NCBI GenBank assembly: GCA_030704615.1
Contig: CM060733.1
Coordinates: 17,856,001-17,920,000 of the forward strand
DNA from: Takakia lepidozioides
Lineage: Eukaryota; Plantae; Bryophyta
Direction of reading: 5' to 3'
Length of the DNA stretch: 64,000 nucleotides
Shown piece after piece: positions 7,110 through 54,859 of the stretch; the first letter of the stretch is position 1, and each line of letters opens with the position of its first letter. Under the pieces are notes generated by a model, which made no database searches, was not told the origin of the DNA, and was given only the letters and a program-made list of their open reading frames with translations. The position numbers were made by a program, and so were the translations under genes.

Positions 7110-7252
7110 GAACGTGGGGGGCCAGGCCAGCTTGGCGGAAACACGTGTCAGGTAACTGCATAGACGCGTGTCACAAATCATGGCAGTTCTGGTCGTAAAA
7201 TTATATCAACACGTGGCGGAAAAATGGAACTATTGTCATATGCCACGTGTCA
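7110..7252 (+). promoter_or_regulatory. ABRE/G-box/CE3 cluster upstream of the USP gene
   Basis: ACACGTGTC (7141), GACGCGTGTC (CE3-like, ~7163), ACACGTGGC (~7209) and GCCACGTGTC (~7242), 230-340 bp upstream of ATG 7478. Confidence 0.7.
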
Positions 7253-7477
7253 AAACATTGTCTGGACTCGTCGTTCTTGTCGTCATTGTCATATTACTAC
7301 ATGAAGTCGTCTTGTTTCTTGTATCCAATCGATCGCTTTCGCAATATCTCAAGAATTCACAGGAACAAAGAGATCTCAAGAATTCACAGGAGCGTGTTCT
7401 TTTTGTCATCCAGTTGACAGAGCTATATTGCTTCTTCCCGATCCACATTTTGGTAGAAACCTGCAAGAAGTGAAGAA

Positions 7478-10400: not shown

Positions 10401-11178
10401 AATCTGCATCTGAAACTAATACTAGTTGGCATTAATTTTCTTCTGGGAACAGGGGAATTTGGAATGGAAGAGGTGTACGTGCCGCCTGATGTCACAGCAC
10501 ATGAGGAGGTGGAGGCACTGAGCGAGAGTGAGAAGCTGGTCGAAAAGTACATGGAATATGTAGCCAAAGCAACGAAGGTATCTCCGCTCTCCTATCTCTA
10601 AAATAATTTCACTCACTGTTTGAGCCAAGGCAGGTTTGTGAAATCCAATGCAATTTTCCAATCAGAAACTAATATAAAACAGAGGTGAATGCCTATGTAG
10701 AAGTGATGATTTACTTACATCTTACTAGTGCAGATACAGTGCGAGGGGATGGTGGTCACCGGACAGACAGAGGAAAAGGTCTGTGAAGGTTTAATCAACC
10801 TGGACGCTGACGCAGTTGTTATTGGCACTCATGATCGGGGCACTCTTGCCAGGTATTTGCATCCAAACTTCCTCCCAGACGGAAGGTTCAGCTAGTGTAG
10901 CGAAAGCATACCATCCTCACAATATTTGCATGTAAATACAACAGAAAATCTTTCTTATGCTAAGTGAGTAGACAAGTGAAGATATGAAAGTTTTAATTCA
11001 GTTTAGGACTTCAACTAGCTATCAACTGACAAACCACTTTGAATGTGGCAGGAATTTTCTGGGAAGTGTGAGTGACTATATGTCACACAACAGTCCATGT
11101 CCACTCATTGTTGCAAAGATGCCCAAAGACTATGCTGATGACAAGCAAAAACCTGTCTCTCATGAACATGCCCCCTAA
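7478..11178 (+). CDS. Universal stress protein (UspA family) with two tandem USP domains; exons 7478-7646, 7977-8092, 8311-8429, 9049-9202, 9375-9486, 10453-10577, 10734-10852, 11052-11178
   Basis: RKIVMAVDDSEAS.YAFTWAL..ADVIVVGSHAHGIIKRTFLGSKSDYVLHNAKCPVAIVR, then RKIVIAVDESRE..YAFRWAIEN..ADAVVIGTHDRGTLARNFLGSVSDYMSHNSPCPLIVAK; GT-AG introns in frame. Confidence 0.92.
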
Positions 11179-15345: not shown

Positions 15346-15519
15346 TCGGCGCCAGCGTCACTTTCAAATTTCCTACTAAGTTATGAAGAAGACTTTTTTG
15401 TCTTTCCTCTTTCCCATGCCAAGATACGGTTGCAATGAGTGCGGTTATTCCCCAATGATCCTGGGTTCAAATCCACGAACCGCAGACTTAACACAAATAG
15501 AAATAGAAATTTGAAGTGC

Positions 15520-18500
15520 CCATCTACAGGAACGAGAGAAGGAAAATGAATTTTTTTCGTGGAGGCCCATCTAGAGGAACGAGGGAAGGAAAGAGATTTT
15601 CTCCCCCGGAAGCCCATCTAGAGGAACGAGAGAAGGAAAAAGATTTCTTCCGTGAAGGGCCATGTAGAGGAACAAGAGAAGGAAAAAAACAAATCTGTGG
15701 AGGCCCATCTAGAGGGAGGAACAAAAGAAGGAAAAAGATTTCTTCCGTGAAGGGCCATGTAGAGGAACAAGAGAAGGAAAAAAAGAAATCCGTGGAGGCC
15801 CATCTAGAGGAACAAGAGAAGGAAAAAAAAAAATCCGTGGAGGCCCATCTAGAGGAACGAGAAAAGGAAAAAGATTTCTTCCGTGAAGGGCCATGTAGAG
15901 GAACAAGAGAAGGAAAAAAAGAAATCCGTGGAGGCCCATGTAGAGGAACAAGAGAAGGAAAAAAAAAAATCCGTGGAGGCCCATCTAGAGGAACGAGAGA
16001 AGGAAAAAGATTTCTTCCGTGAAGGGCCATGTAGAGGAACAAGAGAAGGAAAAAAAGAAATCCGTGGAGGCCCATCTAGAGGAACAAGAGAAGGAAAAAA
16101 AAAAATCCGTGGAGGCCCATCTAGAGGAACAAGAGAAGGAAAAAGATTTCTTCCGTGAAGGGCCATGTAGAGGAACAAGAGAAGGAAAAAAACAAATCTG
16201 TGGAGGCCCATCTAGAGGAACAAGAGAAGGAAAAAAACAAATCTGTGGAGGCCCATCTAGAGGAACAAGAGAAGGAAAAAAAAAATCCGTGGAGGCCCAT
16301 CTAGAGGAACAAGAGAAGGAAAAAAAAAATCCGTGGAGGCCCATCTAGAGGAACGAGGGAAGGAAAGAGATTTTCTCCCCCGGAGGGCCATGCAGAGGAA
16401 CGAGAGAAGGAAAAAGATTTGTTCCGTGAAGGGCCATCCAGAGGAACCAGAGAAGGAAAAAAACAAATCCGTGGAGGCCCATCTAGAGGAACAAGAGAAG
16501 GAAAAAAAAAAAAAACCCGTGGAGGCCCATCTAGAAGAACAAGAGAAGGAAAAAAAAAAACGGTGGAGGCCCATCTAGAGGAACGAGAGAAGGAAAAAGA
16601 TTTCCTCAATGAAGGCCCATGTAGAGGAACAAGAGAAGGAAAAAAACAAATCCGTGGAGGCCCATCTAGAGGAACAAGAGAAGGAAAAAAAAATCCGTGG
16701 AGGCCCATCTAAAGGAACGAGAGAAGGAAAAAGATTTCTTCAATGAAGGCCTATGTAGAGGAACAAGAGAAGGGGGGGAAAAAAATCCGTGGAGGCCCAT
16801 GTAGAGGAACGAGAGAAGGAAAAAACAAAAATCCATGCAGGCCCATCTAGAGGAACGAGAAAAGGGGAAAAAAAAAAGTCTGTGGAGGCCCATCTAGAAG
16901 AACGACAGAAGGAAAAAGATTTCTTCCGTGAGAGGAACCAGAGACGGGAAAAAAAAAAAAAAGACGTGGAGGCCCATCTAGAGGAACGAGAGAAGGAAAA
17001 AGATTTCTTCCGTGAATGCCCATGTAGAGGAACAAGAGAAGGAAAAAAAATATCCGTGGAGGCCCATCTAGAGGGAGGAACGAGAGAAGGAAAAAGATTT
17101 CTTCCATGAAGGCCCACGTAGAGGAACAAGAGAAGGGGAAAAAAAAATCCGTCGAGGCCCATCTAGAGGGAGGAACAAGAGAAGGAAAAAGATTTCTTCC
17201 ATGAAGGCCCACGTAGAGGAACAAGAGAAGGGGAAAAAAAAATCCGTCGAGACCAATCTAGAGGGAGGAACGAGAGAAGGAAAAAGATTTCTTCCGTGAA
17301 GGGCCACGTAGAGGAACAAGAGAAGGGAAAAACAAAATCCGTGGAGGCCCATCTAGAGGAACGAGAGAAGGAAAAAGATTTCTTCAATGAAGGCCCATGT
17401 AGAGGAACAAGAGAAGGAAAAAAACAAATCCGTGGAGGCCCATCTAGAGGAACAAGAGAAGGAAAAAAAAAAACCCATGGAGGCCCATCTAGAGGAACAA
17501 GAGAAGGAAAAAAAATCCGTGGAGGCCCATCTAGAGGAACGAGAGAAGGAAAAAGATTTCTTCAATGAAGGCCTATGTAGAGGAACAAGAGAAGGGGAAA
17601 AAAAAAAATCCGTGGAGGCCCATGTAGAGGAACGAGAGAAGGAAAAAACAAAAATCCATGCAGGCCCATCTAGAGGAACGAGAGAAGGAAAAAAAAAAAG
17701 TTTGTGGAGGCCCATCTAGAAGAACGACAGAAGGAAAAAGATTTCTTCCGTGAGAGGAACCAGAGACGGGAAAAAAAAAAAAAACGTGGAGGCCCATCTA
17801 GAGGAACGAGGGAAGGAAAAAGATTTCTTCCGTGAAGGCCCATGTAGAGGAACAAGAGAAGGAAAAAAAAAAATCCGTGGAGGCCCATCTAGAGGGAGGA
17901 ACGAGAGAAGGAAAAAGATTTCTTCCATGAAGGCCCACGTAGAGGAACAAGAGAAGGGGAAAAAAAAATCCGTCGAGGCCCATCTAGAGGGAGGAACGAG
18001 AGAAGGAAAAAGATTTCTTCCGTGAAGGCCCACGTAGAGGAACAAGAGAAGGGGAAAAAAAAATCCGTCGAGGCCCATCTAGAGGGAGGAACGAGAGAAG
18101 GAAAAAGATTTCTTCCGTGAAGGCCCACGTAGAGGAACAAGAGAAGGGAAAAACAAAATCCGTCGAGGCCCATCTAGAGGGAGGAACGAGAGAAGGAAAA
18201 AGATTTCTTCCGTAAAGGGCCATGTAGAGGAACAAGAGAAGGAAAAAAACAAATCCGTGGAGGCCCATCTAGAGGAACGAGAGAAGGAAAAAGATTTCTT
18301 CTGTGAAGGCCCATGTAGAGGAACCAGAGAAGGGAAAAAAAAAATCCGTGGAGGCCCATCTAGTAGAGGAACGAGAGAAGGAAAAAACAAAAGTCCGTGG
18401 AGGCCCATCTAGAGGAACGAGAGAAGGAAAAAGATTTCTTCCATGAAGGCCCATGTAGAGGAACCAGAGAAGGGAAAAAAAAAATCCGTGGAGGCCCATC

Positions 18501-19322
18501 TAGAGGAACGAGAGAAGGAAAAAGATTTCTTCCGTGAAGGCCCATGTAGAGGAACTAGAGAAGGGAAAAAAAAAAATCCGTGGAGGCCCATCTAGAGGAA
18601 CGAGAGAAGAAAAAAGATTTCTTCCGTGAAGGCCCATGTAGAGGAATAAGAGAAGGAAAGAAAAAAATTCCGTGGAGGCCCATCTAGAGGAATGAGAGAT
18701 GGAAAAATATATATTTTCCCTGGAGGCCAATCGAGAGGAACGAGAGAAGGAAAAAGATTTCTTCCGTGGAGGCCCATGGACAGGAACGAGAGAAGGAAAA
18801 AGATTTCTTCATTGGAGGCCCATCGACAGGAAAAGATTTCTTCCGTGGAGGCCCATGGACAGGAAAGAGAGAAGGAAAAAGATTTCTTCATTGGAGGCCC
18901 ATCGACAGGAAAAGATTTCTTCCGTGGAGGCCCATCGACAGGAAAGAGAGAAGGAAAAAGATTTCTTCCGTGGAGGCCCATGGACAGGAACGAGAGAAGG
19001 AAAAAGATTTCTTCATTGGAGGCCCATCGACAGGAAAAGATTTCTTCCGTGGAGGCCCATCGACAGGAAAGAGAGAAGGAAAAAGATTTCTTCATTGGAG
19101 GCCCATCGACAGGAAAAAATTTCTTCCGTGGAGGCCCATCGACAGGAAAGAGAGAAGGAAAAAGATTTCTTCCGTGGAGGCCCATGGACAGGAAAGAGAG
19201 AAGGAAAAAGATTTCTTCGTTGGAGGCCCATCGACAGGAACGAGAGAACGAAAAAGATTTCTTCATTGGAGGCCCATCGAGAGGAACGAGAGACAGAATA
19301 AGATTTCTTCCGTGGAGGCCCC
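15520..19322. repeat. Purine-rich tandem satellite, ~45-46 bp monomer with higher-order structure
   Basis: Alternating CCGTGGAGGCCCATCTAGAGGAACAAGAGAAGGAAAAA.. and GATTTCTTCCGTGAAGGCCCATGTAGAGG.. units; variant with TCGACAGG and ~29-bp short units after ~18720. Confidence 0.97.
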
Positions 19323-19639
19323 TTGCTCTTTGTGGGTTTTCTTTGCTTTTCTCAAGCGTTTCATTGTGACAGGGTTTGGTTTGTTGCTTTAACTTACTCT
19401 CATTCAAGAGGAGAATAGAATTGAAGTAAGCCGTGTCACGTGACTCGTTTGATGCATATGCAAATGGAAACATTTTTGAGATAACCATAGTGACCATGAA
19501 ATGCATTTGGATAACAATCAAACCAGAAAGAGATAGCGGAAGTCTATCGGCCGATCGGGGGAGCTCCATGATGGAACTCCGCATTTCTCGGTGAGGGCGT
19601 AAGGACTTGGTCGCTGTTGGCTCTCCCTCTCTATAGAGA

Positions 19640-22616
19640 TGAATGATCTTGATCATCTCTCTGTGACCTTCAGTTCTTCGTCTCTCTCAGGCTTAACCTG
19701 ACCCCATCGACTTTTCTTCGTATTCCTTTGCTCTCTTTGTTCCTATATCTCTTGTTCTTCATCCTTTCATCTCTCTACCATTTCTCCATTCTCCATTCCT
19801 TTTCCCTCGTTTGACGGAGTGGCTTCTCCGCATTTCATGCATCTGTCTGCAGATGTCTATTCGGCGGTATTGATTCTGAGCCACCTTCAACTTCACTCTC
19901 TGTCAGCTCTGGTCTGCGATGTTCACTCCTCCTCTGACGGATCAGATGGATTTTGCCGCCTTCCCGCCTTCCCTCTCCTCCCCATTCATTCTTCATCTTC
20001 TCACTTCTCTGCAGTTGCGGTCTCCTGTGTTCTGGCTCTTTCGTCTCAAGCATTGCTCTCCACCATCGCAGCTCGTTCTTTTTCTTCCCTTCGAAGATAT
20101 GGCCTCCTTTGTTTCTGCTGCCCCAACAGCTCCACCCCACCGTGGAGACCAACGCAGACTGCACCGGGACGCCCAAGACCACCGCCGAGAGCCGCGCAGA
20201 CAGCATCGGGACCCCCAAGCCCACCGCAATCAACGTGAATATGGTGACCTTCACTACAGACCCAAAGGAACCATCCCGGCAGCCAACTCGGGCTCTGGTG
20301 TTCTTGGAGCGGGACCTTCACTCAACTCTGCTACTGGCGATCCAGTCATGATCTGGAACGAGGACGCGGGGCAGGCAGACGATTCTCAGGAAATTTTGGA
20401 TCTAAACATGGACATTATTTAAGAACACTCTCAGCTCCTCTCTGAGCAAGGTGTGCTGGTGTTCTTCCCGGGCAGAATTTGTGACAGATATTGGGCCAGG
20501 AAGTGGGCCCTGTAACATCTTGGTGCAGAAGGCGGGCTCACCTCCCAATTCTGTCTCCCTCTCGGGCGAGGCTTCTTTTCAATCATGTTCTCTTCTTTGG
20601 CATTTGCAGAAAAATCCCTGCGCTTCAATGTCAACCGCTCCAAGCATAGAGCACACATCTTTCCATGGTCCCCTGAATGGGGTCACATTGATGGTGTCAC
20701 CCACAAGCCCAGGGTCCTTGCCTTACCCTTCCTGCCAGGGAACTGTCTCCGATCGCTGCCAGAGATCGGGGCTCACTTTGGAGCATATATCGGGTCCATG
20801 AATGTTGTGGAGCCTATTGAGCTGGAGCCTCTAAGCGTCAACACAGACCCTCTCTCGGTGGATATGTATTGTGACGGTGGAGTCCCTCAGATCGTTGTGA
20901 TGATGCCTGAATCGGCACTGATTAAATCGACCATTAAGTTGCCTACTCTACATAAGTCCTTTGTATCAGTTGTTTATTCTTTCAAGTTTTTCAATTGAAT
21001 CTCCTTCATGCTTCCCTTTTCTTTGCTGACCCCTTGTTTCCTAATGCTTCCTCTCACTTTGTCATGCGAAGCTCGGTGCGTCTCGTACAACCATCATTTC
21101 ATGACCCCGTCATGGGCTGCTCTGCCAGATCTCCATGACCCGGTCTCTTACTTCGTGGAATATAAGAGGCATTCGTTCGGACGCCTCCAAGCCTAAGAGA
21201 ACGAGAATTCAACGATGGGCTTCCTCCCTGTTATCCTCCAACGCAATAATTTTTTGCAAGAACACAAATTGGATGCCAATAAAATTGCAGCCCTTGGTAC
21301 GTCCATGTGGCCCTCTTCTTCCTCCTGGTGGAATCCGACAGTGGCGGATACTCGCAGAGGAACGGCTATCATTATTTCCTCATCTATAGCCTCATGTTTC
21401 CAGTCTGTGGATATCTGGCTCCAGGGGAGAGTCCAGTGTGCGATCACAAAACCTACTGCACAATTCGGGTCTTGTGCTTTCTTAAACATATATGCCCCCC
21501 AACATTGTTGCAGATCGCATAGACCTTTGGTGTCTAATTTGTGATAAGATTCTCTCCTTGCCATTGGTGACAAGCTGGGTCTTAGCTGGCGATTTTAACA
21601 TGCTAGATAATTCCTTGGACCGTTTGGACCCCAATGTTTTACCAATTTCTCCTGAAGAGGAAACGGCTTGGGACTCCCTATGTTTTTCTGTGGGTTTCTC
21701 AGATATCAGAAGTAAAGATCTCGGCTCTCTTCGTTTTACTTAGACCAACAATAGACCTCCCCCTGATTTATGCATGGCCAGACTCCGCCAGACTAGACAG
21801 GATTTATGCTTCGCTCTTGGCTCTTCCCTAGATTTCGTCGTCTGCCCAGCTCCCTATTCTCCTAGACTTTGATTACGCTCAGGTGTCTGCTACGTTTGCT
21901 CCCCCTGGTGTTTATGCGAAGGGGCGTAGTTACTTTGAATTAACTCGATGCCGTTGGCCTTTTCTCCCAATTTCAAGGAGTTGGTGGCAGCGTGGTCCAA
22001 TTGCAATTCGTCGGCCTCTTCACCGGCGTCCATGTTTATGATGAAGCTGGATGACCTTAGAAGAGCGGCCCAAAATATATCCAGGAAGTGGCCCTGGCTA
22101 GAGCTGCCAAGAAAAAAGCTCTTCTTAAGTGTATCTCCCATTGCCAGAGTCTGATTGAAGTAGGGTTAGTGGGCCCCCAAACATTTGCCTCCTTGACATT
22201 GGCAAAGAAAAACCTGGCAATTCTCAACGGCTTCAAGGAGCGTTCTCTCATAATCAAAGCTGGAGTTAATTGGTCCCTTAAGGGAGAAAAAATGTCGGCC
22301 TATTTCTTTCAAAAAATGAAGCAAAGTCAAGCTGCGACCTCTGTTTCTGCTCTTACATCCGTCGACGGACTCCCGATTTCAAATCCAAAACAAATGGCAA
22401 AATTTGCTGGTTCTTATTATGCCAACCTTTTCGGCCCTAGGAGTGGGGACTCGTCTGAGGCTAGACGTCTTGTTCTCGACATGATTCCAAACATCCTTTC
22501 TGATGAGGAATAGAAACGATTATCTGCCCCCTTCACGTCTAGGGAGTTGCTCCCTGTTGTTAGTCCCTCAGCCCTGACAAGACTCCAAGCTTGGATGGGC
22601 TCCCAGTGGAACTCTT
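19640..22616 (+). mobile_element. L1-type LINE, 5' part (ORF1 remnant plus APE endonuclease of ORF2), degenerate, split by the Gypsy insertion
   Basis: SWNIRG, FLQEHKL, RRGTAIII, LNIYAP, WVLAGDFN, SARLDRIY, GEKMSAYFF, KTPSLDGLPVEL; frameshifts and stops; 5' boundary approximate. Confidence 0.88.
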
Positions 22617-22701
22617 TGTCGTGCGCATACATATCCCTACACAACTACATCGCTGTCCAAACCACACCACACATATATGCACAATAAAGTAGTCTGCCAC
22701 A
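22617..22701 (-). repeat. Terminal repeat A, outer copy (85 bp)
   Basis: Matches 23043-23127 except for one base. Confidence 0.93.
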
Positions 22702-22702
22702 A

Positions 22703-23040
22703 TGATAAGAAAAGCTAAGAACACACTCTTAACACAAGAAACATGAAATCCATCTCATCATCACTCTTTCAGATAATAGTCGAGCCAGGGGCACCCCAAG
22801 CTATGGGGACTCCACCCCACAACAACCTATCCTCCTATCATAAGTATACTCAATTCTAGACGATGAAGGCTCAACTCGAGAGAGATGAGCTGCGCGACTG
22901 CCGCTCTCGTGAAGATAAGACGGTTCAGGTGTCAAACTAAACTTGACACCTGATTTAACACTTGACCTAAATCCAAGTGTTAAATACAAATAACTAGTTT
23001 TATTCTAGTTGTTTTCACACTGTGCTTATTTAACTTGACA
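22703..23040 (-). repeat. Terminal repeat B, 3' copy (338 bp)
   Basis: Matches 32589-32942 with four transitions and one 16-bp deletion; contains two adjacent stem-loops (CAGGTGTCAA..TTGACACCTG and TAACACTTG..CAAGTGTTA). Confidence 0.95.
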
Positions 23041-23042
23041 GC

Positions 23043-23127
23043 TGTCGTGCGCATACATATCGCTACACAACTACATCGCTGTCCAAACCACACCACACAT
23101 ATATGCACAATAAAGTAGTCTGCCACA
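23043..23127 (-). repeat. Terminal repeat A, inner copy (PPT-adjacent U3 start)
   Basis: On the minus strand it starts TGTGGCAG right after the PPT and is joined to B by the palindrome GACAGCTGTC (23037-23046). Confidence 0.93.
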
Positions 23128-23141
23128 ATCGCCCCCCTAGC
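23128..23141 (-). other. Polypurine tract
   Basis: Minus strand GCTAGGGGGGCGAT immediately before the TG of the 3' repeat. Confidence 0.8.
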
Positions 23142-23387
23142 TGGTGGATAGGTCCCTCTACCTCCAGATAGCTACAAGATGTAATAGCCACAGTCATACC
23201 AAGTCCTCTATCACTGTCCCTATTGCACTCAAACCCTATAGACCAAGAGGCCGGGTACAAGAGTAGCCCCATCGTTAGTCGCCGTCTTGCAATCTGTGAA
23301 CTTGAGCCAGGACCTCGTGTGTTCAAGGTCTCCTAGTAGCTGGGCCTTGTGTTTCTTGTTAGCCTTCCATGGTTGTATCCACTCCCA

Positions 23388-24968
23388 CTATCCAATGCAA
23401 TGTGGACATAACCAATCCCCATCCGGAACCATCTCAAGAGGTGGAGTCAAGCATCCCATATGCCAACCTCTAGAGCATCGATCACACACCAGCATGGTGG
23501 CTGCCCCTCTAGCAGACCCACACAACATGCACCTCAAACCTGCAGATACCACTGCCAAGTTTGGGTCTATCCTGCCATCGACATTCGGAAGGTGACATGG
23601 CGCACAATTACGCACATGGTCCTTCCAAGTTATGCCATCCCGACCCTCCAAGACCAAGACGCCTGAAGGCAAGACCTCTCGAACCCTCAAAATAACACGT
23701 CCTGCAGTCACATCCAAGGTCGTAGGAGCAGTTTGCTGCAGATAGACATAGTCACCAGGGTTGAATCTCCAAACCCCAGGATGATAGCCCCCACCATGTA
23801 TGGTAGCATACCTCAACGTATCACGGTGTTGTGCAATGGCAAGGTTCTCGAAAGCCATGGGCATGACTTTCTTGAACAACTTTGCACGCTGCTCACATGC
23901 ACGTGCCCACACGTCCGGATCGTCAAGGTTAAGAACTGTAGCAGCTTCTCTGCGAATGGATGTAGGCAAATCCGGCTCTCGGCCAAAGAGAAGAAAGTAT
24001 GGTGAGAAGGAGGCAAGTGATGCTTGCTTGCTGAACCTGTAGCCCATGGCTAACCAGGGTAACTGAAGGTCCCAATCTCCTAGGTGTCCCTTCTGCAAGC
24101 CATACTTGCGCAAACCCCTCTTTACTGTCTGAACAACTCTCTCTGCCAAGCCATCGGCCTCAGGATGATCCCGAGAAGTGGTGCGGTGGTCTATCAAGGC
24201 CTTGTCACACAAAGCCTGAAACTCCCCCAAGAACTCTCTCCCTTGGTCCGTGAGTACCTCAGCTGGAGCACCGAATCGGCTAAGCACACAATCCAAGAAT
24301 GCATACGCAGCTCCCTCACTAGCCTTATCAGGCAATGGAACCAATTCAATCCACTTGGAGAAGTGCTCCACCATCACCAACACGTACTTGTTGTGGCGCA
24401 TGGTCAGTGGCAACGGCCCTGCGAAGTCAAGACTCCACCTGTAGCCCAATCCCATGATCGGAAGAGGGTGCAATTGTGGAGTAGGGGCGTTGAATGAAGC
24501 ACGCACCCTGTCACACACCATGCACCTAGCCACAAATTGTTGCACCTCTGTGTGCATACCATGCCACCAATACTGCCCCTGCAGTAGACTATGAGTGCGT
24601 CGCACCCCAAAATGCCCCAACTCCTCATGGGCATGCCGCACTAACCGTGCCCGCTGTGTTGGGTGAGGCACAATCCTCACTCGACCATCCTCCCACACTC
24701 GGAGCAGGTGTGTCACGTCCCACTTGAATCTCTTGGCTCGTTGTAGGATCCGATCCCTCTCCTTGGCAGTCACAGTGGCTGCAGTGTCTCCAGTGCGGAG
24801 GTAGTCCAACACAACTGAATCCTCATGTATATCTTTTGCGCCACCTTGCTCCTTGTTGGCCTCAGGGTCCTCAGACACTTGATCTACAGTCATCCCTATT
24901 GCAGGTCCAACCTGGCTTTCCACTGCCAAGATACACAGAAATGCAGATGTATGCCATCCGGGCACCAT
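23388..24968 (-). CDS. Gypsy integrase (HHCC zinc finger, DDE core) with C-terminal PHD finger
   Basis: HEELGH..CMVC, WSLDFAGPLP, VLTDQGREF, DGLAERVVQTVK; CMLC..VCDRC..WHMGC..WLCPHC (C4HC3) at ~23397-23531. Confidence 0.93.
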   Translation of the reverse strand: MVPGWHTSAFLCILAVESQVGPAIGMTVDQVSEDPEANKEQGGAKDIHEDSVVLDYLRTGDTAATVTAKERDRILQRAKRFKWDVTHLLRVWEDGRVRIVPHPTQRARLVRHAHEELGHFGVRRTHSLLQGQYWWHGMHTEVQQFVARCMVCDRVRASFNAPTPQLHPLPIMGLGYRWSLDFAGPLPLTMRHNKYVLVMVEHFSKWIELVPLPDKASEGAAYAFLDCVLSRFGAPAEVLTDQGREFLGEFQALCDKALIDHRTTSRDHPEADGLAERVVQTVKRGLRKYGLQKGHLGDWDLQLPWLAMGYRFSKQASLASFSPYFLLFGREPDLPTSIRREAATVLNLDDPDVWARACEQRAKLFKKVMPMAFENLAIAQHRDTLRYATIHGGGYHPGVWRFNPGDYVYLQQTAPTTLDVTAGRVILRVREVLPSGVLVLEGRDGITWKDHVRNCAPCHLPNVDGRIDPNLAVVSAGLRCMLCGSARGAATMLVCDRCSRGWHMGCLTPPLEMVPDGDWLCPHCIG

Positions 24969-24989
24969 CTCCTTGTCCGTCTCACCATG

Positions 24990-26400
24990 CTACCGAGCTC
25001 CAGTGTCATCCTGCTGGCTCGTGCATGGATTGCGACTCAACCCATCTGCATTGCGATTGACCAAACCCGGTCGATGCACCACCTGAAAGTCATACTCTTG
25101 AAGGATGAGTGCCCACCGTGCAAGCTTCCCCGTAAGCTTGTCTGACTCCATCAACCACTTGAGTGGTTGGTGATCCGTGACAAAGGTGAAGAGATTGCCG
25201 TATAGATAGCACCTGAAGTGTGTCACGGCCCACACTGCAGCTAAGCATTCTCCCTCATATGAGCTATACTTAGACTCTGCAGCATTGTTCGAGCAGCTAG
25301 CATAAGCCACTACGAACTCTCTTCCCTCATCATCCACCTGTGTGAGCACCACTCCAAGCCCCAGCATGCTCCAATCTGTATGCAGCTGAAAATGACGCCC
25401 CCTGATAGGTCGTCTCAAGATGGGCGCCGAGGTCAACCTCGCCTTGAGCTCTTGAAAAACTTGTTCTTGTTCATCTTCCCACTGCCACTCCTGGTCCACC
25501 TTGGTCAACTTAGTTAGAGCCTTTGCAATGGCACTAAATCCCTTAACAAACCGTCTGTAATAGTTTGCTAACCCCATGAAAGCTCGAACTCGGCTCACAT
25601 CCGTGGGGCGTGAAACCTGTGCAATGGACTCTACCTTAGTCTGCTGTACCCCCAATCCTCCAGGATATATCATGTGACCCATCTGGTTGTGGAAAAACTT
25701 GCATTTTCCCGGATGTAACTTCAATCCGTGCGCCCTCAAGCACTCAAATACCCCCTGAAGGTGTCTCTCATGCTCCTCCACCGTAGCACTAAAGATGATG
25801 ATGTCATCTATGTAGCACCGAGCAAACTCCACCCCTGCTAGAATCCTGTCCATGACTCTTTGAAACTCAGCAGGAGCGTTTTTAAGCCCAAATGGTAAGA
25901 ACCGCCACTGGTATAGGCAATCCTTCCCGTGCTCATTGATCCCCCAGAATGCCGTCTTTTGCTTATCCGCCTCCTTGATCGGCAACTGGTGATATCCGGA
26001 TCGTAAATCCAACGTGCTAAGACCTTGGAATGCCCAATGGCATCAAAGATCTCCTCTGGTGTCGGCATGGCATACCTATCGGACTTGGTCTGACGATTTA
26101 CAGGCCGTAATCACCGCACATACGTCTCTCCGTCCAATTGCCATAGACATCCTTCTTGGCTGACATCACTGTGGCTGAAGCATACTCTCCACCAGAGAGC
26201 TTCACCAAACCTGCCTCCCAGAGATCTTGAGTCCTCATCTGAATCAAAGACCTCTCCATGTCACTGTATCTATAGGGTCTCCGAAAGATTGGCGTGTCAG
26301 TGGCCAACTCAATACGGATCTCTTGACCCTTCAGTGCTCCCAAGTCCTTCAAACTGAAGGCAAAGCAATTCCTGTAAGCCCTCAGGAACCGCCGTATACG
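24990..26400 (-). pseudogene. Gypsy reverse transcriptase-RNase H (two frameshifts, one in-frame TAG)
   Basis: PIFRRPYR, RRMCGDY, LDLRSGYHQ, LPFGLKNAP, YIDD (~25803-25814), LHTDWS, YEGECLA, VTDHQPL, NADGLSR. Confidence 0.95.
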
Positions 26401-26799
26401 TTGTCTCTCTCCTCCGGTGACAATGGGTCCAATGTCAGGCTCCCAATTGTCCTCCGTAACTGCAACCTTAAGTCCAGTGGGCTTAGAGGTAGAGGACGCG
26501 TCCCGTGGTTGCTATGCTGCAACCTCTTGAGCAGTATTCCCTTCCTGCTCAGTCAATGACAAGGCCTCATCCTGCCCCATCATCTCATCATTGAGAACCT
26601 CCTCATCCCGAGAAGAATCCCCAACCTCATCCATCACAGCTGCCTTGGCTGCCAACTCTCTCTGAACCTCGAGCACCTCCCACGTGTGCCATGGATGTCT
26701 ACACCCCGTGGTCCTCACCGGCTCGCCCCCACTCGCTGCCTGTACCGTCTCGGTAGGCAGAGAGACCGTCAAGGGAAGTGCACTCCGTACTCTACGTTG

Positions 26800-27765
26800 C
26801 TCAGCCATAGCCAAGCTGATAATCCAGGTCAAGCAATTGAGATCCATTGCTTGCCCCAACACCTGACGACATGATGCCTCAGAAAGAGAAGGCACCGCCG
26901 TGGTCCCAGTGGAAAACCCCATAGCCCGCTCTCGCTCGTCGGCATTAGGCTCCACTAACTGCTGCAACTGAGCATCCCACAGGAGGCCAGGTCCACCATC
27001 CCGAAAAGCATGGGATCCTGGGAAGCTGAGCAGTGTAGGTAATGCTGCTCGTGGTTGACCCACCTTGTTGACCACTACCAAAGGCGAACGGTCATCGTGT
27101 CTCACACGTTGAGACTGCCTTCCTGTGTCCAAAATGCCATCCACGGTGAGGTGTGCTGGCCGCTGCACCCCATCAAATGCACGCTTGAACAGTGCGGGTG
27201 GCATCAAGTTAGTCCACCAAAGCCGTGGACGATGAGCCCGTGACCCCACTGCAGCTGCATCCAGCAACACTGCTGACCCAAGCCACGACCGGACTTGATG
27301 CACATTGGCCATCACCCTGGCCCAAGAATCACCCATCAGTGGCACATTCTCCAAGATGTATGCTGGAGATACAGCTTGATGAAGCTGCAAGTGGTGCAAA
27401 ACCCGCACCATCTCCCAAAACAGACCCGTCCTCGAGTCTCGCAATCCATTGCCATGCCTGGCTGATGAATGCCCTTGGCAGGGCCAACCTGCCACTACCA
27501 GATCAATGGAGCCAACCTACTTCAAATCCGGCATCCCCAGCAATGAAATGTCTGCTGGCAAGGCTTGTTGGTATCCACGAACTGCAGACACTGGCAACAA
27601 AGCAGGGTACTGCTGTACCAACTAAGCAACATGGCGCAGTGAGACCCGTCGTGCAGTCTCATCCCTCTCCACATACAGGTAACGCCTTACCCGCACACCT
27701 GCCTGTAGCACAGCAGCCAATCCGGTGCTAATCCCGCCAAACAAGTCCAGAAGGCAAATACCTTC
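26800..27765 (-). pseudogene. DNMT3-like C5 cytosine methyltransferase domain inside pol (two in-frame TAG stops)
   Basis: Motif I LLDLFGGIS, II YVERD, III DISLL, IV IDLVVAGWPCQG, VI YILENV, VIII AHRPRLWWTNL, IX ERERAMGF..GTT, X RQVLGQAMD; all in one frame that continues into the start of RT. Confidence 0.92.
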
Positions 27766-28149
27766 ATCCGGATACTGCCACACAATAGGTGTGGTATCCA
27801 ATGGTGACAACTGAGGTGGTCTTGGTGCAATACCCGCACTCTCCTCCTCTCCTGACGGTACAAAAGCCTCTACCTAGGCTTGTTGCACCCGTCGATCAGC
27901 AACCTGCCGCAAATCCTTGCTCGTACCCCACAATGGAGTGTGAGCAACCATGGCAGACAACTCCGCCATATCATGCATGTCATCCTGCTCTGCTGGAGAT
28001 GGCACATCCTCTGCATGGGCATTGTCTTCCAGCAACTCTCCAGGCCAACTAACTGCAGCTGTAAAGGCGGCTAGTATTGGCATCTTGCCCCGTTGGGCAG
28101 CCGCAATACCCCCAATGATTGTCACAGGGAGCTGTGCACGACGACCATC

Positions 28150-28530
28150 CCCTGACTGCCAGGCCTGTAGAATGCTGACTCCTCCCAAAAGTCCAGGGTG
28201 AAGCCCATGGGGTATAACACTGCCCCACCAACGAGGACATCGTAAGAGACCGCGTCTGTCACAATGGCCTTGGCTCGCATTACTGAGCCATCGATAGGAT
28301 GATCCGGCTGTAGTCTAATGACCAACTGATGCCGTGTCATGCCCCGAGCCTGCTCTGATCCTCCAGAGATCTGTATATGGAAAGACAAGGCTCCATATCC
28401 ACCTCAATGAGGCCCAAAACCTGCAATAGCAGTTCTGCCCAACATAGTGGCTGAGCTCCCGAGTCCAACAAGACCCGCAGTGGAGGGTTGGTTACGTTCT
28501 GCTGCCGGTCCCTCAGAGAAAATGCCATAC
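28150..28530 (-). pseudogene. Gypsy aspartic protease (frameshifted)
   Basis: RVLLDSGAQPL catalytic motif and downstream SYDVLVGGAVL. Confidence 0.85.
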
Positions 28531-29148
28531 TGGTTGTCTAACAAGACAACTCCAGGTGTCACCATGGCGCGCTCAAAGGCTTGGCCTAGCTGGCAGCTCC
28601 GTCACCTGGCAGCTTACAGCTTGAAAGGGGCGCAGCATTGGCAGGTCTTGACCTCAAATCCGAGGATCCCTCTGCCACTACACATCCACTAACTCCGCAG
28701 AGATGAAGTGACCTCCCCACTCTCAAAGAGTGTTGCTGCTAGTATGAACACTGCAGCTGGGTCTTACCCCGGCGTCGCAATAATGTTGCCGAGAAACAGT
28801 GAGGCTTGACACACAGAGGGGGCTGCCCCCAATAACACACTGGCTGCACTAGTTTGGTATAGCATGTGTCAGTGCTGCACGGGTAGCTCTCCCCAATGGC
28901 ATAGTAACCTCCACCTCGGTAACTGTCGGGCGAGAACTAGGTGCCCATGAATGGCGTCGACACTGTCTCCGCCAATGTAAATGACTGAGGAAAGGCCTCG
29001 CCGACGGCTTGCACTCCCCACGCTATGGATCCAATTCCACCTGTGCACCTCGTGGCTCAGGAACTCGTGATGCTCCTCGAGTCACGGCTTGCAGCAGACT
29101 CCACCTGCTCTAGTGGTAGTGCTGCTCCGCACATGAATCCCATGCCTC

Positions 29149-30711
29149 CTATATCTCCTCCTCAGGAATAGGAGGTGGACCATCACGCCTGGGAGTCGGT
29201 ACCGCCTGAGCTGTAGCCATGGCAGCGAGCCTCTGCTCTAGCTGCTGAAGCCGGTTGGCCATGCCTTGGTGAACACCCTGACCTCCGCGTCCTTGGCCAT
29301 GTTGAGCTTGCCCTTGGCCTGCACCTCGTGCCCGACCACCTCGTCCTCTCTGGGCTGGTCCACCTCGCCCCCGGCCACCATTGTTCCCTTGGAACTGGCC
29401 TGGGCGCAACTCAGGATGCAAGTCATAACACTGGGCATCTCCATGCCCATACTTGCCACAATGCCCACACTGCAACTGTGCAGGCTGTACTTGTGCCGAC
29501 CTTCTGCCACTCTCTGGGCAATCTCTTTTGACATGGGGTCCTCCACATGTCCAACATATCACCCCTGGTTGCTGTTGGCCTGCAAAAGATGCCACGGGCC
29601 TCTGCACCTGAGGTCCCCTGTAAGCTCCATGGAACTTGGGTTGGGAAACCTTGCCCCCCTGACCACGCTGTTGGGTAGTCCCTTGTGCCTGTGGGCTGGT
29701 TGTTGCGCCTCGTGCAGGCATGTCCTTGCCAGATCCAATGGTAACAACTCGCTCCTCCACCATGTTGAGCTCAATCCGCTCAGCCAGCAGAAACACATCT
29801 GCTAATGTGGGTTGGGCTGCTTGTAACAGGGTTGCATCTCGCACCCTTCTCTTGAGCTCCTTGTCCAGAATTCCATACCAAAACTGGATTGCCTGAGCTT
29901 CAGTAACCCCTTGGGTCACACTTATCAAGCGCCTCATACGAGTGTACGCCTCTCGCAGGCTCTCACTGGGTTTGCGCTGGAAGTCTTGCAAACTTCGCAG
30001 CTTCTCTGTCCGTACACCTTGGTAGTTCCTCCGCAACTCCTGGAAGAACTCCACCACCGGGTTGAATCTAGGCACATGTGTTGTAGTCGTGGCAGGAGGA
30101 GTAGTAGCACCTTTTGAACTGGTACCACCTGCAGAAGTACCGGCACTACTTGCTCCACTACTAGTGCTGGCAGTGGGAGATATTGGTACTGATGCAGCTA
30201 CTGGTCGCGTCGTGCCTCGAGTAATGGAGACGTAGTTAGGTGACCAATACATCCTCCACTCCTCAATTTCTGCTTCATGTCCTCGCCTGAACTCGTGGTA
30301 ATCGTCCATAGGCGGGCCTTCTAAATGCTGGAACATTTCCTTCCACGCCATGAATGGGGTGAATAGCTGTGGATTGCGCATCTGCTGCAAATCACACCAA
30401 CTGTCGAACTCCTGGATAAAGTCATCCAACTCGATTGTGCCCACAGCTCCAAAGTACCTACGAGGCCCCTTGGTAGCTCCATACATCTCCTCCATGTCGT
30501 CCCACAACAATGGCGAATGAAACTGCACACCTGTTGATGAAGCCTCCGAGTCTGTGTCTGACTCTATAGTAGTTGAGGGTGGCGGTGAAGGTGGTCTGAA
30601 CCGAATACCTCGTCTTGTGAACCCACTCTCACTGTTACTACCTGTAGCCGTACTCCTCTCAAAACCCTTGGGTAACTCCGTGATGACACTCACAATGTGC
30701 ACCTCCTCCAC
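29149..30711 (-). CDS. Gypsy Gag with two zinc knuckles and an RGG-rich tail
   Basis: Capsid-like LQDFQRKPSESLREAYTRMRRL; CWTCGGPHVKRDC and CGHCGKYGHGDAQC; start codon uncertain. Confidence 0.88.
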   Translation of the reverse strand: MEEVHIVSVITELPKGFERSTATGSNSESGFTRRGIRFRPPSPPPSTTIESDTDSEASSTGVQFHSPLLWDDMEEMYGATKGPRRYFGAVGTIELDDFIQEFDSWCDLQQMRNPQLFTPFMAWKEMFQHLEGPPMDDYHEFRRGHEAEIEEWRMYWSPNYVSITRGTTRPVAASVPISPTASTSSGASSAGTSAGGTSSKGATTPPATTTTHVPRFNPVVEFFQELRRNYQGVRTEKLRSLQDFQRKPSESLREAYTRMRRLISVTQGVTEAQAIQFWYGILDKELKRRVRDATLLQAAQPTLADVFLLAERIELNMVEERVVTIGSGKDMPARGATTSPQAQGTTQQRGQGGKVSQPKFHGAYRGPQVQRPVASFAGQQQPGVICWTCGGPHVKRDCPESGRRSAQVQPAQLQCGHCGKYGHGDAQCYDLHPELRPGQFQGNNGGRGRGGPAQRGRGGRARGAGQGQAQHGQGRGGQGVHQGMANRLQQLEQRLAAMATAQAVPTPRRDGPPPIPEEEI

Positions 30712-30785
30712 GTCACACTATAAGGCTCTAGTATTAATCTAATAGTGACACGGGTGGGCACCTGTTGCAGTCTAGATCAAAAGAT

Positions 30786-32505
30786 TTTTTTTATTTTATT
30801 TTTTTAACACCCAAACGTTCTCGTCATTACAACCTGTTCCCAGGTTATCTACGAGTTCCCGAGGCCATTCCCCGACTATGCTGACTCCGGGAGCAACAAA
30901 GACGAAGGCTCTGCTCAGTTGAGCCCAATAGAAGGGGACGAAGAAGTCAGCGACATGCACATCTCTGACGAGCAATACTTCGCTGACGACCAGGCACTCC
31001 AAACCAAGTCCGCACGAGACCAGATAGTGACCACCAATGATCGCCCCAGGAAATGCAATCATACAAGACCGAGTTTTCTCCCCAGCGGACAAGCGGGTGT
31101 AGGTCAGCCGAGTCTTGTGGTAAGGTGAAGAGGATGCTAGGTGCATGAAGAGCTGGGTCCGATCAGCTGGCTAAGATTTGCGTTACAGATGAGATATAAA
31201 CCTCTTGAGTAGCTCAGGATGGTGGAGTTGGGTCTGGCATCGACTCGTTATGATTCATCTTCTGGCCATGGTTGGTCTCGATTTAACATGCGCAATACAT
31301 CTCCAGTATCATATTCTTGTCTTTTCGAGTCCTGGCAACCTCCCGGCTCAGCAGGTTCTTGCAAGTGCGTCAAAAGTCGGGTTTCTTCCAGTGCGTGTGC
31401 TCATTATCTTGCGCGGGTTGATGATGGGTTTCGTGCACCGGTCAAGCATGTCCCTCCCTATGCTTCATTCTTTCTCTTTTCGCAGGTTACAACTATATCT
31501 CCCTTTAATCCTCTCGCACGGTTGGGCAGAGAGTTGAGGCAGCTTCTTCTTCAAGAAATGTTATCTCAATCACAATTTGGGTCGTTGGACAGAGTATCCG
31601 AGTTGGCTTGTACATCTTTGAAGCCTTCCTCCTCTTCACAGGCCGCTTCAAGTGCTCTCTGTTTGCAGCACCTTCTTCCTATCTCTAAATCTCTCCCTCA
31701 GTCTAAAGAAACAGGATGCCCACAAGTAACCTATCGCATGCGACTTTCTGCTTAAAGCAAGATGGGTTGCATTCCTCCTGTTTGCTGGTGTCGTGGCCAC
31801 TTTCATGTGGAAGAGGGTTCCCCGTGCCCTGTCAAATCCTACCACCTTCTATCAAACCGACACCCGAAGTAGAAAGCAATCAAGTAGATTGGTTCCCACA
31901 TTGCCATCCGCATATTTTGTGCATGGCGATTCGGTGAGGCTAGACATTTCCTTGCTGAGCGAGGAAAAATAAGGGCGGAGAACTGCTCATGTCAAAAGGT
32001 CAAAGCCAAAGAGTTGAAACATTGTGCGAAGGGGGACTGCAGCTGGATGCTCTGGAACCCATCGCCAGCACTCTTTGCGAGGAGTCCATCCGTCACCATC
32101 CTCAAGAAGATCAACCTGGGCCACTCGAGAGTATTGAGAGTTCTTGAGGTAAATAGAGCTACCACACCTGGTAGCCAGGACATTGAAGCTACTATGATCG
32201 TTTAAAAAGTGGCTTGACACAAACCACGGCGTTTCTGCTGCCCTCTCCCACTTCAGCGCAACATTCAGCGTCCAGAGAGTGAAGTCCCTCTTTCCATAAA
32301 GGTAGACCTCCACGGTAAAGAGGATGAAATGCCCGCCACTTTCTATCAGCTTTCTGTCTTCGCATATGACTCCTATCCCAAAGTGCAGGCCTGTCGTGCG
32401 GACCTCAATCCAGACCTCTTGGTTTTCAAACTCACGAGCAGAGACGACAACTAAATCTGCGCGCACAGCCCATGGAAACAGCAGGGCCAGATGGACTCCC
32501 GCCCC
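30786..32505 (-). mobile_element. Probable 5'-truncated degenerate LINE inside the Gypsy 5' UTR
   Basis: A-rich tail on the minus strand (T run 30785-30805), candidate TSD AAGAT (30781-30785 and 32506-32510), remnants GGL..LNVALKW..TPW and zf-RVT-like SCMI..HYLVSC. Confidence 0.5.
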
Positions 32506-32572
32506 AAGATATATATTATAATAATGCTAAAACAAACATTGTATCTAGCTTAGCACCAGCACACTAGATAAC

Positions 32573-32588
32573 GCTCATCTCTCTCGAG
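32573..32588 (-). other. Self-priming-type primer binding site
   Basis: Minus strand CTCGAGAGAGATGAGC directly after repeat B is the exact reverse complement of 16 nt inside B (32777-32792); no TGG tRNA-type PBS. Confidence 0.8.
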
Positions 32589-32942
32589 TGATAAGAAAAG
32601 CTAAGAACACACTCTTAACACAAGAAACATGAAATCCATCTCATCATCACTCTTTCAGATAATAGTCGAGCCAGGGGCACCCCAAGCTATGGGGACTCCA
32701 CCCCACAACAACCTATCCTCCCATCATAAGTACACTCAGTTCTAGACGATGAAGGAGCTCGGTCGCGCAGGCTCAACTCGAGAGAGATGAGCTGCGCGAC
32801 TGCCGCTCTCGTGAAGATAAGACGGTTCAGGTGTCAAACTAAACTTGACACCTGATTTAACACTTGACCTAAATCCAAGTGTTAAATACAAATAACTAGC
32901 TTTATTCTAGTTGTTTTCACACTGTGCTTATTTAACTTGACA
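32589..32942 (-). repeat. Terminal repeat B, 5' copy (354 bp)
   Basis: Minus strand TGTCAAG...CTTATCA, directly flanked by the TSD. Confidence 0.95.
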
Positions 32943-33383
32943 TCTTCAAAGCTCTATGGGCTGTGATTGAAGTCGACTTTCTGGCGATGACTAATGATGT
33001 TCTCCTGTCCGGTTCGCTGCCTCCTCGACTCTCACAAGGAGTCATCACTCTGATCCCAGCTCCGTTAACACCCGCTTCTCACCAACTGATGGTGATGAGT
33101 CTGACACAAACTAAGCGCCCTGTCTGTAAAGCAAGATCAAAGGCCCAACTTTCATTCGAGCCTGCTCGTCGCAATAGAAGCAACGCTTAGCTCTCCTAGT
33201 TGCTTAGTTTTTATCTGCTTATCTCTTTGTAGTTTCCTGATAGGCTCTACCTCTGTTACTCCTGGTCACGGGGCTGTTTGTCCCCTTTTTCAGCCTCCAT
33301 GGCTTGTCATGAGAGGTTATTTTTTCCTCTTTTAATATATGGGCCTTCCTCGGGCCCTTTCTGCAAAAAAATAAAAATAAAAA
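32943..33383 (+). mobile_element. L1-type LINE, 3' part (RT core deleted) with poly(A) tail
   Basis: FKALWAVIEVDFL..LPPRLSQGVITLIP continues the ORF2 frame from 22616; A-rich tail 33365-33383. Confidence 0.8.
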
Positions 33384-37326: not shown

Positions 37327-38136
37327 GCCGATCCCTTTCACCAAGCCTTCAGTAATTGTCAGCAGCTAATGGAGGCTTTTATCAGATCTTACGCCCGAAA
37401 GACTGCATTTCAGATCTTCAGAAGACCCAAGAATCCATTCTCTTTCTCCACTAACCGGACAGGGTGAGACAACCAGACACAGCGATACCTTCCCAAACTC
37501 AACAAAACCAAAACTCCAAGAACTATAAAAGAATGCTCTGCAATTATCAGGAAAATTGCAGCCTACAAAAACGGTGGTACAGCTCTTGGCATTGTAACTT
37601 TCTCTATACACTGGCATAATTCGAGCCATGCCATACAATTTCATAACAATCTCATGTGCCTACCACCACTGAAGAATGGACCGACAGAGCACCAGTCATA
37701 GAACAATACTCAGAATTGTCTAGCTCGAGATCTGCTTAGGGTTTGGTTGGAGGTGCGAGAAAACCGAGTCTGCCCTAACTGCCCCAGAATAAAATTAAAA
37801 CAAATTACGATCTGAAAAAAAATGGAAATATATAAAATGGCCCCATTCATTTTCTGGCGGGCATTTTCTCGGCTGCCCGTCTGAAAAGTAGCCTCGGAGT
37901 CGAATCGCTGGCCGGCACGTGGCGTGGCCGTTGCGCCGGCGGCTAACCCTAACGGGGTGCGCCTCGCGGCTCCATGGCTGGACCCGCATTCATGCGCCGC
38001 CCTTCACCTCTCGCTCGCATCTGACCTAGATGTATGCAACCTGCATTCCTCTTCTGCGTACTATCGCTTCACGTGTTGCTTTGTTTGGGATTGTGTAGAA
38101 GGAGCGAGGGTGAAGGGAAGGCGAGCGGGAGGCGTA

Positions 38137-54830: not shown

Positions 54831-54859
54831 CCATGTAACAGGTCCCAGTATAATCGAAG

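Follow-up and report, generated by a model that had tools for sequence, protein, structure and literature searches.

A Gypsy retrotransposon with a DNMT3-type methyltransferase domain, a conserved stop and permuted repeats in a land-plant genome

A DNMT3-type domain within a Gypsy element

The 64,000-nucleotide stretch analysed here (the window: Takakia lepidozioides, contig CM060733.1, positions 17,856,001 to 17,920,000, numbered below from its first letter) contains on its minus strand a Gypsy retrotransposon in which a DNMT3-type C5 cytosine methyltransferase domain (the DNMT domain) lies between the protease and the reverse transcriptase (RT). The element is a new, land-plant variant of KnitGypsy-Dnmt3 of Klebsormidium nitens, described by de Mendoza et al. 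2018 (PMC5890265; papers are cited here as far as their available text goes); DNMT-bearing Gypsy elements themselves were already known. It splits a plus-strand open reading frame (ORF) resembling a long interspersed nuclear element (LINE), and the frame resumes across the insertion. The parts of the element, from its 5' to its 3' end, are as follows.

22617..32942, minus: whole Gypsy element, with TG...CA ends and the 4-bp target duplication TCTT (22613-22616 and 32943-32946)
32589..32942, minus: repeat A1, 354 nucleotides (nt), the 5' end of the element; four mismatches and one 16-nt gap against A2
32777..32792, minus: 16-nt stretch within A1 that can pair with the bases immediately following A1
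32573..32588, minus: primer-binding position after A1, without the TGG start of a tRNA site; pairs with 32777-32792
30790..32540, no strand assigned: leader region, exceeding that of sister elements by about 0.95 kb and mostly of low depth in read contigs
29149..30717, minus: gag, open over 522 codons; a Met at 30495 aligns with the start of homologues
28122..28480, minus: aspartic protease, D-S-G at 28448-28474; frameshifts and stops in the window copy
26845..27765, minus: DNMT3-type C5 cytosine methyltransferase domain, interrupted by two premature stops in the window copy
26515..26844, minus: C-terminal tail of ORF1 after motif X, its second half acidic; homologues ending here have tails of about 50-180 residues
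26506..26514, minus: in-frame stop in the context TAG-CAA-CCA, conserved in the family; the TAG itself is 26512-26514
24990..26511, minus: RT (YIDD at 25797-25817) and RNase H; RT is frameshifted near 26100 and again near 26020
23700..24662, minus: integrase, with H2C2 zinc-binding part and rve core; D-D-E at 24417-24434, 24240-24254 and 24135-24152
23388..23534, minus: PHD finger at the integrase C-terminus (Pfam E 3e-10), without the tryptophan of the cage for trimethylated histone H3 lysine 4 (H3K4me3)
23130..23140, minus: polypurine tract TAGGGGGGCG, two bases ahead of B1
23043..23127, minus: repeat B1, 85 nt, the inferred start of U3
23037..23046, palindromic: perfect palindrome GACA-GC-TGTC at the B1/A2 joint, the sole GACAnnTGTC in the window
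22703..23040, minus: repeat A2, 338 nt
22617..22701, minus: repeat B2, 85 nt, the 3' end of the element; one mismatch to B1, A2/B2 joint CA-T-TG

The order of gag, protease, RT, RNase H and DDE integrase, together with the polypurine tract, the TG...CA ends and the target duplication, places the element in Ty3/Gypsy; two identical terminal long terminal repeats (LTRs) are missing, the ends being A and B-A-B, and the integrase C-terminus has a PHD finger in place of the chromodomain of chromoviruses. No tyrosine recombinase of the DIRS/PAT/Ngaro kind matched in the ORFs of the element or in 21 long homologues, where rve and H2C2 matched instead. The gag frame has two zinc knuckles (29518-29556 and 29428-29469) and a Retrotrans_gag match under the Pfam cut-off (E 0.0044), and Asp_protease_2 matches were found in the protease region of homologues. 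Five ORFs of the extra leader segment, which is probably a secondary insertion, gave no Pfam match; an A-rich tract lies at 30784-30806. The two A repeats differ at 4 of 338 letters and the two B repeats at 1 of 85. With frameshifts in its protease region and RT and stops in its DNMT domain, the window copy is dead. Reads of the host species show a very abundant family: in one run 80,863 contigs matched, and the summed contig depth over the element body is about 1e6 against 58 for the flanking contig, a depth that is not a copy number.

The initial annotation had reported C5 methyltransferase motifs in order, including the catalytic PC and ENV, and this proved correct. The domain (27765-26845) occupies one minus-strand frame in the canonical order I to X, and motifs I, II, IV (GWPCQ), VI (ENV), VIII, IX and X are recognised in the frame 27873-26512, which is shared, as also first described, with the post-protease linker (27874-28314) and the RT N-terminus (26098-26511). 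The motifs read in this frame are listed below.

27721-27753, minus: LLDLFGGISTG
27661-27675, minus: YVERD
27472-27489, minus: GWPCQG, motif IV
27343-27357, minus: ILENV, motif VI
27214-27243, minus: SRAHRPRLWW
26914-26937, minus: ERERAMGF
26845-26868, minus: RQVLGQAM

Premature TAG stops interrupt the domain at 27622-27624 and 27517-27519, and another stop lies just upstream of it (27874-27876). Against a Pfam cut-off of 22 bits, PF00145 matches the open part of the domain with 40.7 bits (E 2.6e-10) and the frame with its stops read through as X with 41.8 bits (E 1.2e-10). A sequence search of solved structures ranked DNMT3A best (E 5e-10), followed by DNMT3B (5e-6), DRM (9e-4) and HhaI (0.02). 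An AlphaFold model of the domain, built with 49 aligned sequences as input, has a predicted local distance difference test score (pLDDT) of 93.5 and a predicted template-modelling score (pTM) of 0.92; in Foldseek it is closest to DNMT3A (E 1.2e-19, template-modelling scores 0.74/0.83), and the top matches listed are all DNMT3A/B/C. Among 63 aligned domains the catalytic residues are near-invariant: the motif IV Cys is kept in 60, the motif VI Glu in all 63, and the motif VIII Arg residues in 61 and 62. Judged by sequence and fold, the domain is thus a DNMT3-type C5 methyltransferase nearest to DNMT3A/B, as its motifs had first suggested, and intact forms of it are predicted to be catalytically active. 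DRM identity was rejected: it would need motifs VI-X ahead of I-V, the order here runs from I to X, and the DRM matches are weak.

The domain is under purifying selection between subfamilies. Sister copies keep it in frame, and the ratio of nonsynonymous to synonymous change (dN/dS) is 0.10-0.20, not near 1. Between the window and L006, L007 and L010 it is 0.10-0.11, a rough value as synonymous differences per site (pS, 0.65-0.72) approach saturation; between L006 and L007 or L010 it is 0.19-0.20, equally rough for the same reason; and the unsaturated pair L024/L025 gives 0.12 at pS 0.22. Decayed near-copies have DNMT dN/dS of 0.37-0.75, similar to the RT of the same copies. The constraint is weaker than on RT, RNase H and integrase, with 0.146 nonsynonymous differences per site (pN) against 0.03-0.07 (L024, L035).

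Among 7994 scored candidates the DNMT region had 58 longer homologues, and an organism is named for 20 of these: Marchantia (15), Sphagnum (2), Calypogeia (1), Klebsormidium (1) and Monoraphidium (1), with no vascular plant among the 20. A metagenome scan added 70 loci related to the DNMT region, and in 45 of the 53 best (L002-L054) Gypsy domains adjoin it, the other 8 being short or partial. A full HMMER search yielded 234 clusters (50% identity) at E 1e-30 or better; in the best 150 the domain stands before RT in 16 and between RNase H and integrase in 76, and 58 are uninformative. For 28 elements, the DNMT tree and the tree of RT plus RNase H each split by layout (97% Shimodaira-Hasegawa-like support). 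The window falls among Marchantia and moss-type copies in both, and Klebsormidium KFL_009030040 lies on that side as well; a second DNMT tree without this sequence and 15 fragmentary or near-duplicate rows agrees. The trees were made by quick methods and with FastTree; as they are unrooted and without an outgroup, we claim no root, donor or order of events. Their agreement indicates that the domain has long travelled with the element and is no local capture.

The sister branch with the order RNase H, DNMT, integrase comprises P0035, P0042, P0047, P0059, L046 and many of P0198-P0343, and includes Monoraphidium neglectum. A PHD finger is present in 43 of its 60 members having integrase, Pfam overlooks the DNMT domain in many, and P0283 and P0291 have a G-patch domain between DNMT and integrase. 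Viral contigs yielded four candidate loci; the one confirmed encodes an unrelated, phage-like methyltransferase of 35% identity.

The flanking genes had been taken to indicate a land plant, and a host RBM39-like splicing factor gene (37885-45460, plus strand) agrees. A 79-residue exon of this gene shares 96% identity with Sphagnum compactum, Marchantia and Calypogeia; for named vascular plants among the best 120 of 293 matches the maximum is 91%. This one exon points to a land plant, most likely a bryophyte. The proposed extension of such elements into embryophytes is likewise borne out by the relatives in Marchantia, Calypogeia and Sphagnum, of which no account was found in the available literature.

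A conserved stop between methyltransferase and RT

The TAG at 26512-26514, between the DNMT domain and RT, is a family-wide feature and not decay. Of the 33 loci that have both DNMT and RT, the window among them, 31 show an RT-frame stop that precedes the RT N-terminus by 51-75 nt. The six letters after it match CAR-YYA at five or more positions in 29/33 loci and at all six in 8/33, the window and 7 others (CAACCA, CAGTTA, CAACTA, CAATCA); the two remaining stop-bearing loci have a second stop at the CAR position. By comparison, 0 of 95 decay stops matched at six positions and 4 of 95 at five. Redundancy is high among the 33 loci, many being close duplicates within one moss-type subfamily or a single locus sampled twice, so that independent stop contexts number about five. 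Intact members of the family are available for comparison: L024 reads 1369 codons, a single TAG-CAG-TTA and then 1047 codons in the same frame, and many intact homologues are Gag-protease-DNMT proteins that terminate 50-180 residues past the domain.

UAG-CAR-YYA is the tobamovirus readthrough signal, functional with UAA too (PMC3542737). The Type I (CARYYA) site of tobacco mosaic virus, a stop followed by CAR-YYA with a downstream ORF in frame, is matched exactly in the window and 7 loci, with the difference that here it stands between methyltransferase and RT, downstream of the protease, and not at the gag/pol boundary. A stop conserved in this context implies that ORF1 encodes Gag-protease-DNMT, and that the remainder, RT-RNase H-integrase-PHD, is very probably made by stop readthrough, a predicted recoding event. 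As the domain lies upstream of the stop, it would be made one-to-one with Gag, and RT and integrase would be minor products. The initial annotation had called the domain an integral part of pol and no stray capture; its integral place is upheld by the family-wide Gypsy neighbours, the agreeing trees and purifying selection, and its assignment to pol is not, because it ends the Gag-protease ORF before the conserved TAG.

The stop could instead be the true end of the protein, with RT-integrase translated from its own start codon or from a spliced RNA and the split repeats described below produced by nesting or recombination. In the large moss-type subfamily, which reads CAA-CCC (5/6) after the stop, an in-frame ATG at codon +3 would suit such separate translation. 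This ATG is missing from the window, L006, L008, L024, L029/30 and L039, which keep CAR-YYA with differing third positions, and we regard the combined alternative as improbable.

Recoding of another kind is seen in L049/L050 (2032-9327 and 126-7421), where ORF1 runs over 2027 codons to a TGA followed by 404 codons in that frame, and an overlapping frame holds DNMT, RT and integrase.

Permuted repeats and a probable route of integration

The element has A (354 nt) at its 5' end and B-A-B (85, 338 and 85 nt) at its 3' end, a layout shared by L034 with different LTR sequences. All five two-ended elements (window, L034, L036, L008 and L042) have 4-bp duplications at the A start and B end, and B precedes the A start in 0 of 12 A-start loci. 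The B1/A2 joint is GACA-nn-TGTC in five elements, with GC in the middle in the window, L010, L034 and L035 and GT in L024. The A2/B2 joint varies: CA-T-TG in the window, CA-AT-TG in L034, and in L036/L038 CA, 16 nt starting with primer-site sequence, then TG. Four copies (L008, L015, L016 and L042) end after a single B, L008 and L042 with matching duplications.

We considered A as the LTR of a second, nested element and rejected this, because L034 and L036 again show this layout together with target duplications. Nesting or recombination as the source of the split repeats, the second half of the alternative given above, finds some support in the extra low-copy sequence of the window leader; against it, A...B-A-B with matching target duplications is found again in unrelated copies whose LTR sequences differ, and the layout has been reported for Klebsormidium.

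The 16-nt stretch within A1 is complementary to the primer position after A1, where the longest complement in 1000 shuffles was 10 nt (fold z -4.7). The primer position of L034 pairs in like manner (fold z -3.3), and in sisters the pairing stretch inside A sits shortly downstream of a TATA-like box. We infer that these 16 nt form the 5' end of a transcript able to prime its own reverse transcription, a layout like that predicted for Tcn1 elements; A1 would then hold the downstream part of U3 together with R and U5. The polypurine tract and primer position imply that the replicated LTR is B-GC-A, whereas inserted copies run from A to B.

Split direct repeats are also known from PAT/Ngaro elements, and an A...B-A-B layout is typical of circle-integrating elements; PAT/Ngaro use a tyrosine recombinase, whereas the window element has a DDE integrase making 4-bp duplications. 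The integrase of foamy virus cuts a palindromic LTR-LTR junction into processed ends (PMC1180852). Its palindrome is the joint of the cDNA ends, whereas that of the window element is fixed inside U3 and is here a putative integrase attachment site. The simplest reading of these repeats, and a likely one, is that circles formed by end joining are opened at the internal palindrome and so integrate. Initially, a transcript would begin inside A1, its 5' end pairing with the sequence after A1 to prime its own copying. Ordinary reverse transcription from the polypurine tract would then yield linear DNA with the LTR B-GC-A at both ends, and joining of the ends would give a two-LTR circle, leaving the variable A/B joint. 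Afterwards, integrase would cut one internal GACA^GC^TGTC into recessed CA-3' ends with 2-nt overhangs, and the opened circle would insert as A-body-B-A-B with a 4-bp duplication. Cutting of both palindromes, or a one-LTR circle, would produce the A-body-B copies that are also seen. The permuted LTRs and target duplications would thus suggest a DDE-integrase element that routinely integrates from circles, usually deemed dead ends.

If two palindromes lie in such a circle, the enzyme might serve to guard one of them in the manner of restriction-modification, methylating GACAGCTGTC, which holds CAG/CTG: one site would be cut and the retained one not recut, giving a competent A-body-B-A-B copy and not a dead A-body-B. 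The palindrome is conserved and equals the predicted cut site. Both end forms occur, with the palindrome next to B in the window, L010, L024, L034 and L035 and flanking DNA next to B in L008, L015, L016 and L042; moreover, the other cited methyltransferase-carrying retroelements are largely DIRS, which use circular intermediates. The GT middle of L024 speaks against this idea, as do the loose sequence specificity of DNMT3-type enzymes and the lack of any GACAnnTGTC in L046, L049 and L050, which also leaves permuted LTRs in the RNase H-DNMT-integrase branch unsupported. We give such a guard little credence.

A proposed role for the enzyme and its known relatives

The closest solved structures to the PHD finger are those of CHD4, PHF12, KDM5A/B PHD1, ATXR5 and BHC80, which read unmethylated H3K4, and the cage Trp two residues before His is present in only 1 of 54 family PHDs. 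The family PHD is presumably of the type that reads the H3 tail without K4 trimethylation, and would likely steer insertion to chromatin without H3K4me3. This state of the tail is the one that DNMT3 favours (PMC6453930). PHD fingers in Gypsy elements were already known (PMC9940879, PMC6673714).

Freed by the protease and abundant in the particle, the methyltransferase would likely mark extrachromosomal DNA, so that a new copy arrives methylated. We hold this particle-borne action on extrachromosomal DNA, in which activity, packaging and methylation of cDNA are all predicted, at a probability of roughly 55%. The full picture is advanced tentatively and is open to doubt: an ancient green-lineage Gypsy clade, abundant in bryophytes, that would combine palindrome-cut circles, a capsid-level DNMT3 and an H3K4me0-type PHD, and send pre-methylated copies into silent chromatin, possibly with the palindrome shielded. 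If true, readthrough would make a DNMT3 enzyme a capsid-level component, and an uncut palindrome might be shielded from the element's own integrase.

Several observations weigh against this scheme in one or other of its parts. The domain is commoner between RNase H and integrase (76) than before RT (16), and the stop is absent in the branches L049/L050, P0033/P0077, P0041 and P0043; with the stop absent or the DNMT after RNase H in other branches, Gag-level dosage is not required family-wide. About five independent contexts underlie the conserved-stop count, and internal initiation is possible in the moss-type subfamily at its in-frame ATG at codon +3 (+7). The variable circle joint is known from three elements only, and A-body-B copies are explicable by recombination between B1 and B2. 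The observed/expected CpG ratio of the element (0.49) resembles that of host DNA (0.39-0.46), and sister-copy decay is higher at CG (0.12-0.15) and CHG (0.16-0.19) than at CHH (0.04-0.05), an excess that could be put down to host MET1 and CMT; neither CpG depletion nor the C-to-T spectrum singled out an element-specific methylation context. In mosses, the host DNMT3b already methylates new DNA de novo (PMC6453930). Finally, in the one published assay of it, the KnitGypsy-Dnmt3 enzyme gave no de novo DNA methylation in yeast, where human DNMT3B also failed; its authors do not take this result as decisive (PMC5890265).

The yeast result would also suit a role outside DNA methylation, such as methylation of RNA or a structural or nucleic-acid-binding part in the capsid, as would the position of the domain on the Gag side of the stop and its weaker constraint relative to RT, RNase H and integrase. 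Such a role is distinctly unlikely: the catalytic Cys, Glu and Arg are near-invariant over a very divergent family, the fold is nearest DNMT3 and not DNMT2, and an unrelated enzyme, that of SymbioDIRS-Dnmt3, methylates CG de novo (PMC5890265).

Alternatively, an active enzyme may act mainly on chromosomes, surplus ORF1 product methylating integrated copies or insertion sites; the effect would be a damped family copy number or a shaped host heterochromatin, and not the marking of particle cDNA. Gag-level output would far exceed the need of one cDNA, the family is very abundant in host reads, and a self-limiting role of benefit to the host is raised by de Mendoza et al. (PMC5890265). However, no dedicated targeting module accompanies the DNMT in ORF1, de novo methylases are already present in the host, and most branches fuse the domain in Pol beside integrase, which points to the pre-integration complex. 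We consider mainly chromosomal action unlikely, and favour the marking of extrachromosomal DNA.

The closest known system is KnitGypsy-Dnmt3, and K. nitens KFL_009030040, taken as a copy of it, is 44% identical. Both elements have the Gypsy domain set, an intronless and unrearranged DNMT3-type domain before RT, and purifying selection on it, with Ka/Ks under 0.2 there and 0.10-0.20 between subfamilies here; the DIRS-like repeat structure in the legend to its Fig. 4c corresponds to the A...B-A-B of the window and L034. They differ in host, a charophyte there and a land plant here, and in the place of the domain, which is inside a continuous Pol ORF in KnitGypsy-Dnmt3 and ends the Gag-protease ORF at a conserved stop here; this stop between DNMT and RT makes the present element a variant. 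The available text of that paper mentions no integrase-fused PHD and gives no repeat mechanism.

SymbioDIRS-Dnmt3 and SymbioLINE-Dnmt of Symbiodinium, DAM-LTR and EpiLTR share a retroelement-borne DNA methyltransferase and belong to other element classes or enzyme clades. In print, retroelement DNMTs are on record from dinoflagellates, Euglena-type EpiLTRs and one charophyte. Later papers mention 'streptophyte' elements (PMC12344493; bioRxiv 10.64898/2026.05.21.726589), and the available text of the latter treats streptophyte Gypsy-DNMT3 as a separate acquisition with no mention of land plants or readthrough. Gypsy-7a_cRei of Chlamydomonas (PMC9940879) shares a PHD in the Gypsy polyprotein, proposed to steer insertion; unlike in the window element, a methyltransferase is not listed in its available description. 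REM1 of Chlamydomonas is a further PHD-bearing Gypsy cited there. In the available text of REXdb (PMC6317226), PHD and methyltransferase are unmentioned.

The full-text literature available names no land plant, readthrough stop or repeat mechanism for DNMT-bearing Gypsy elements. Marchantia is unmentioned in the available supplements of PMC5890265 and PMC12344493, and figure-only trees and preprint supplements might include bryophytes. Literature searches on six Marchantia locus ids and on Selgy/Phygy with PHD yielded no papers. Close relatives in Marchantia and Sphagnum, with their methylation mutants and transformation, make the role of the enzyme testable, and the conserved readthrough stop predicts its dosage and place in the particle. 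Annotations of bryophyte genomes list such copies as host genes for DNA methyltransferases or as hypothetical genes, which can inflate DNMT counts.

The frame split by the element is a decayed, plus-strand endonuclease/RT frame (21100-22616 and 32943-33190). We take it to be LINE-like from its motifs, its in-frame continuity and a weak exonuclease III match (E 0.024); Pfam gave no match on five pieces of it. Exons of an NAD-dependent epimerase gene (minus strand) and universal stress protein genes (plus strand) lie at 2206-10600. About 3.9 kb of A-rich tandem repeats with periods of 45-46, 79 and 95 nt and strong AT and GC skew occupy 15490-19370. At 51189-53000, arrays of roughly 50-nt repeats have a GCGACCGCC...GGCGGTCGC hairpin in each unit, two blocks in one orientation flanking one in the opposite; they are possibly subterminal repeats of a DNA transposon. 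Finally, a Copia fragment at 55163-57163 is surrounded by a complex of 120-nt direct repeats and long inverted ones, whose arms reach 522 nt (96%), at 54785-61170.

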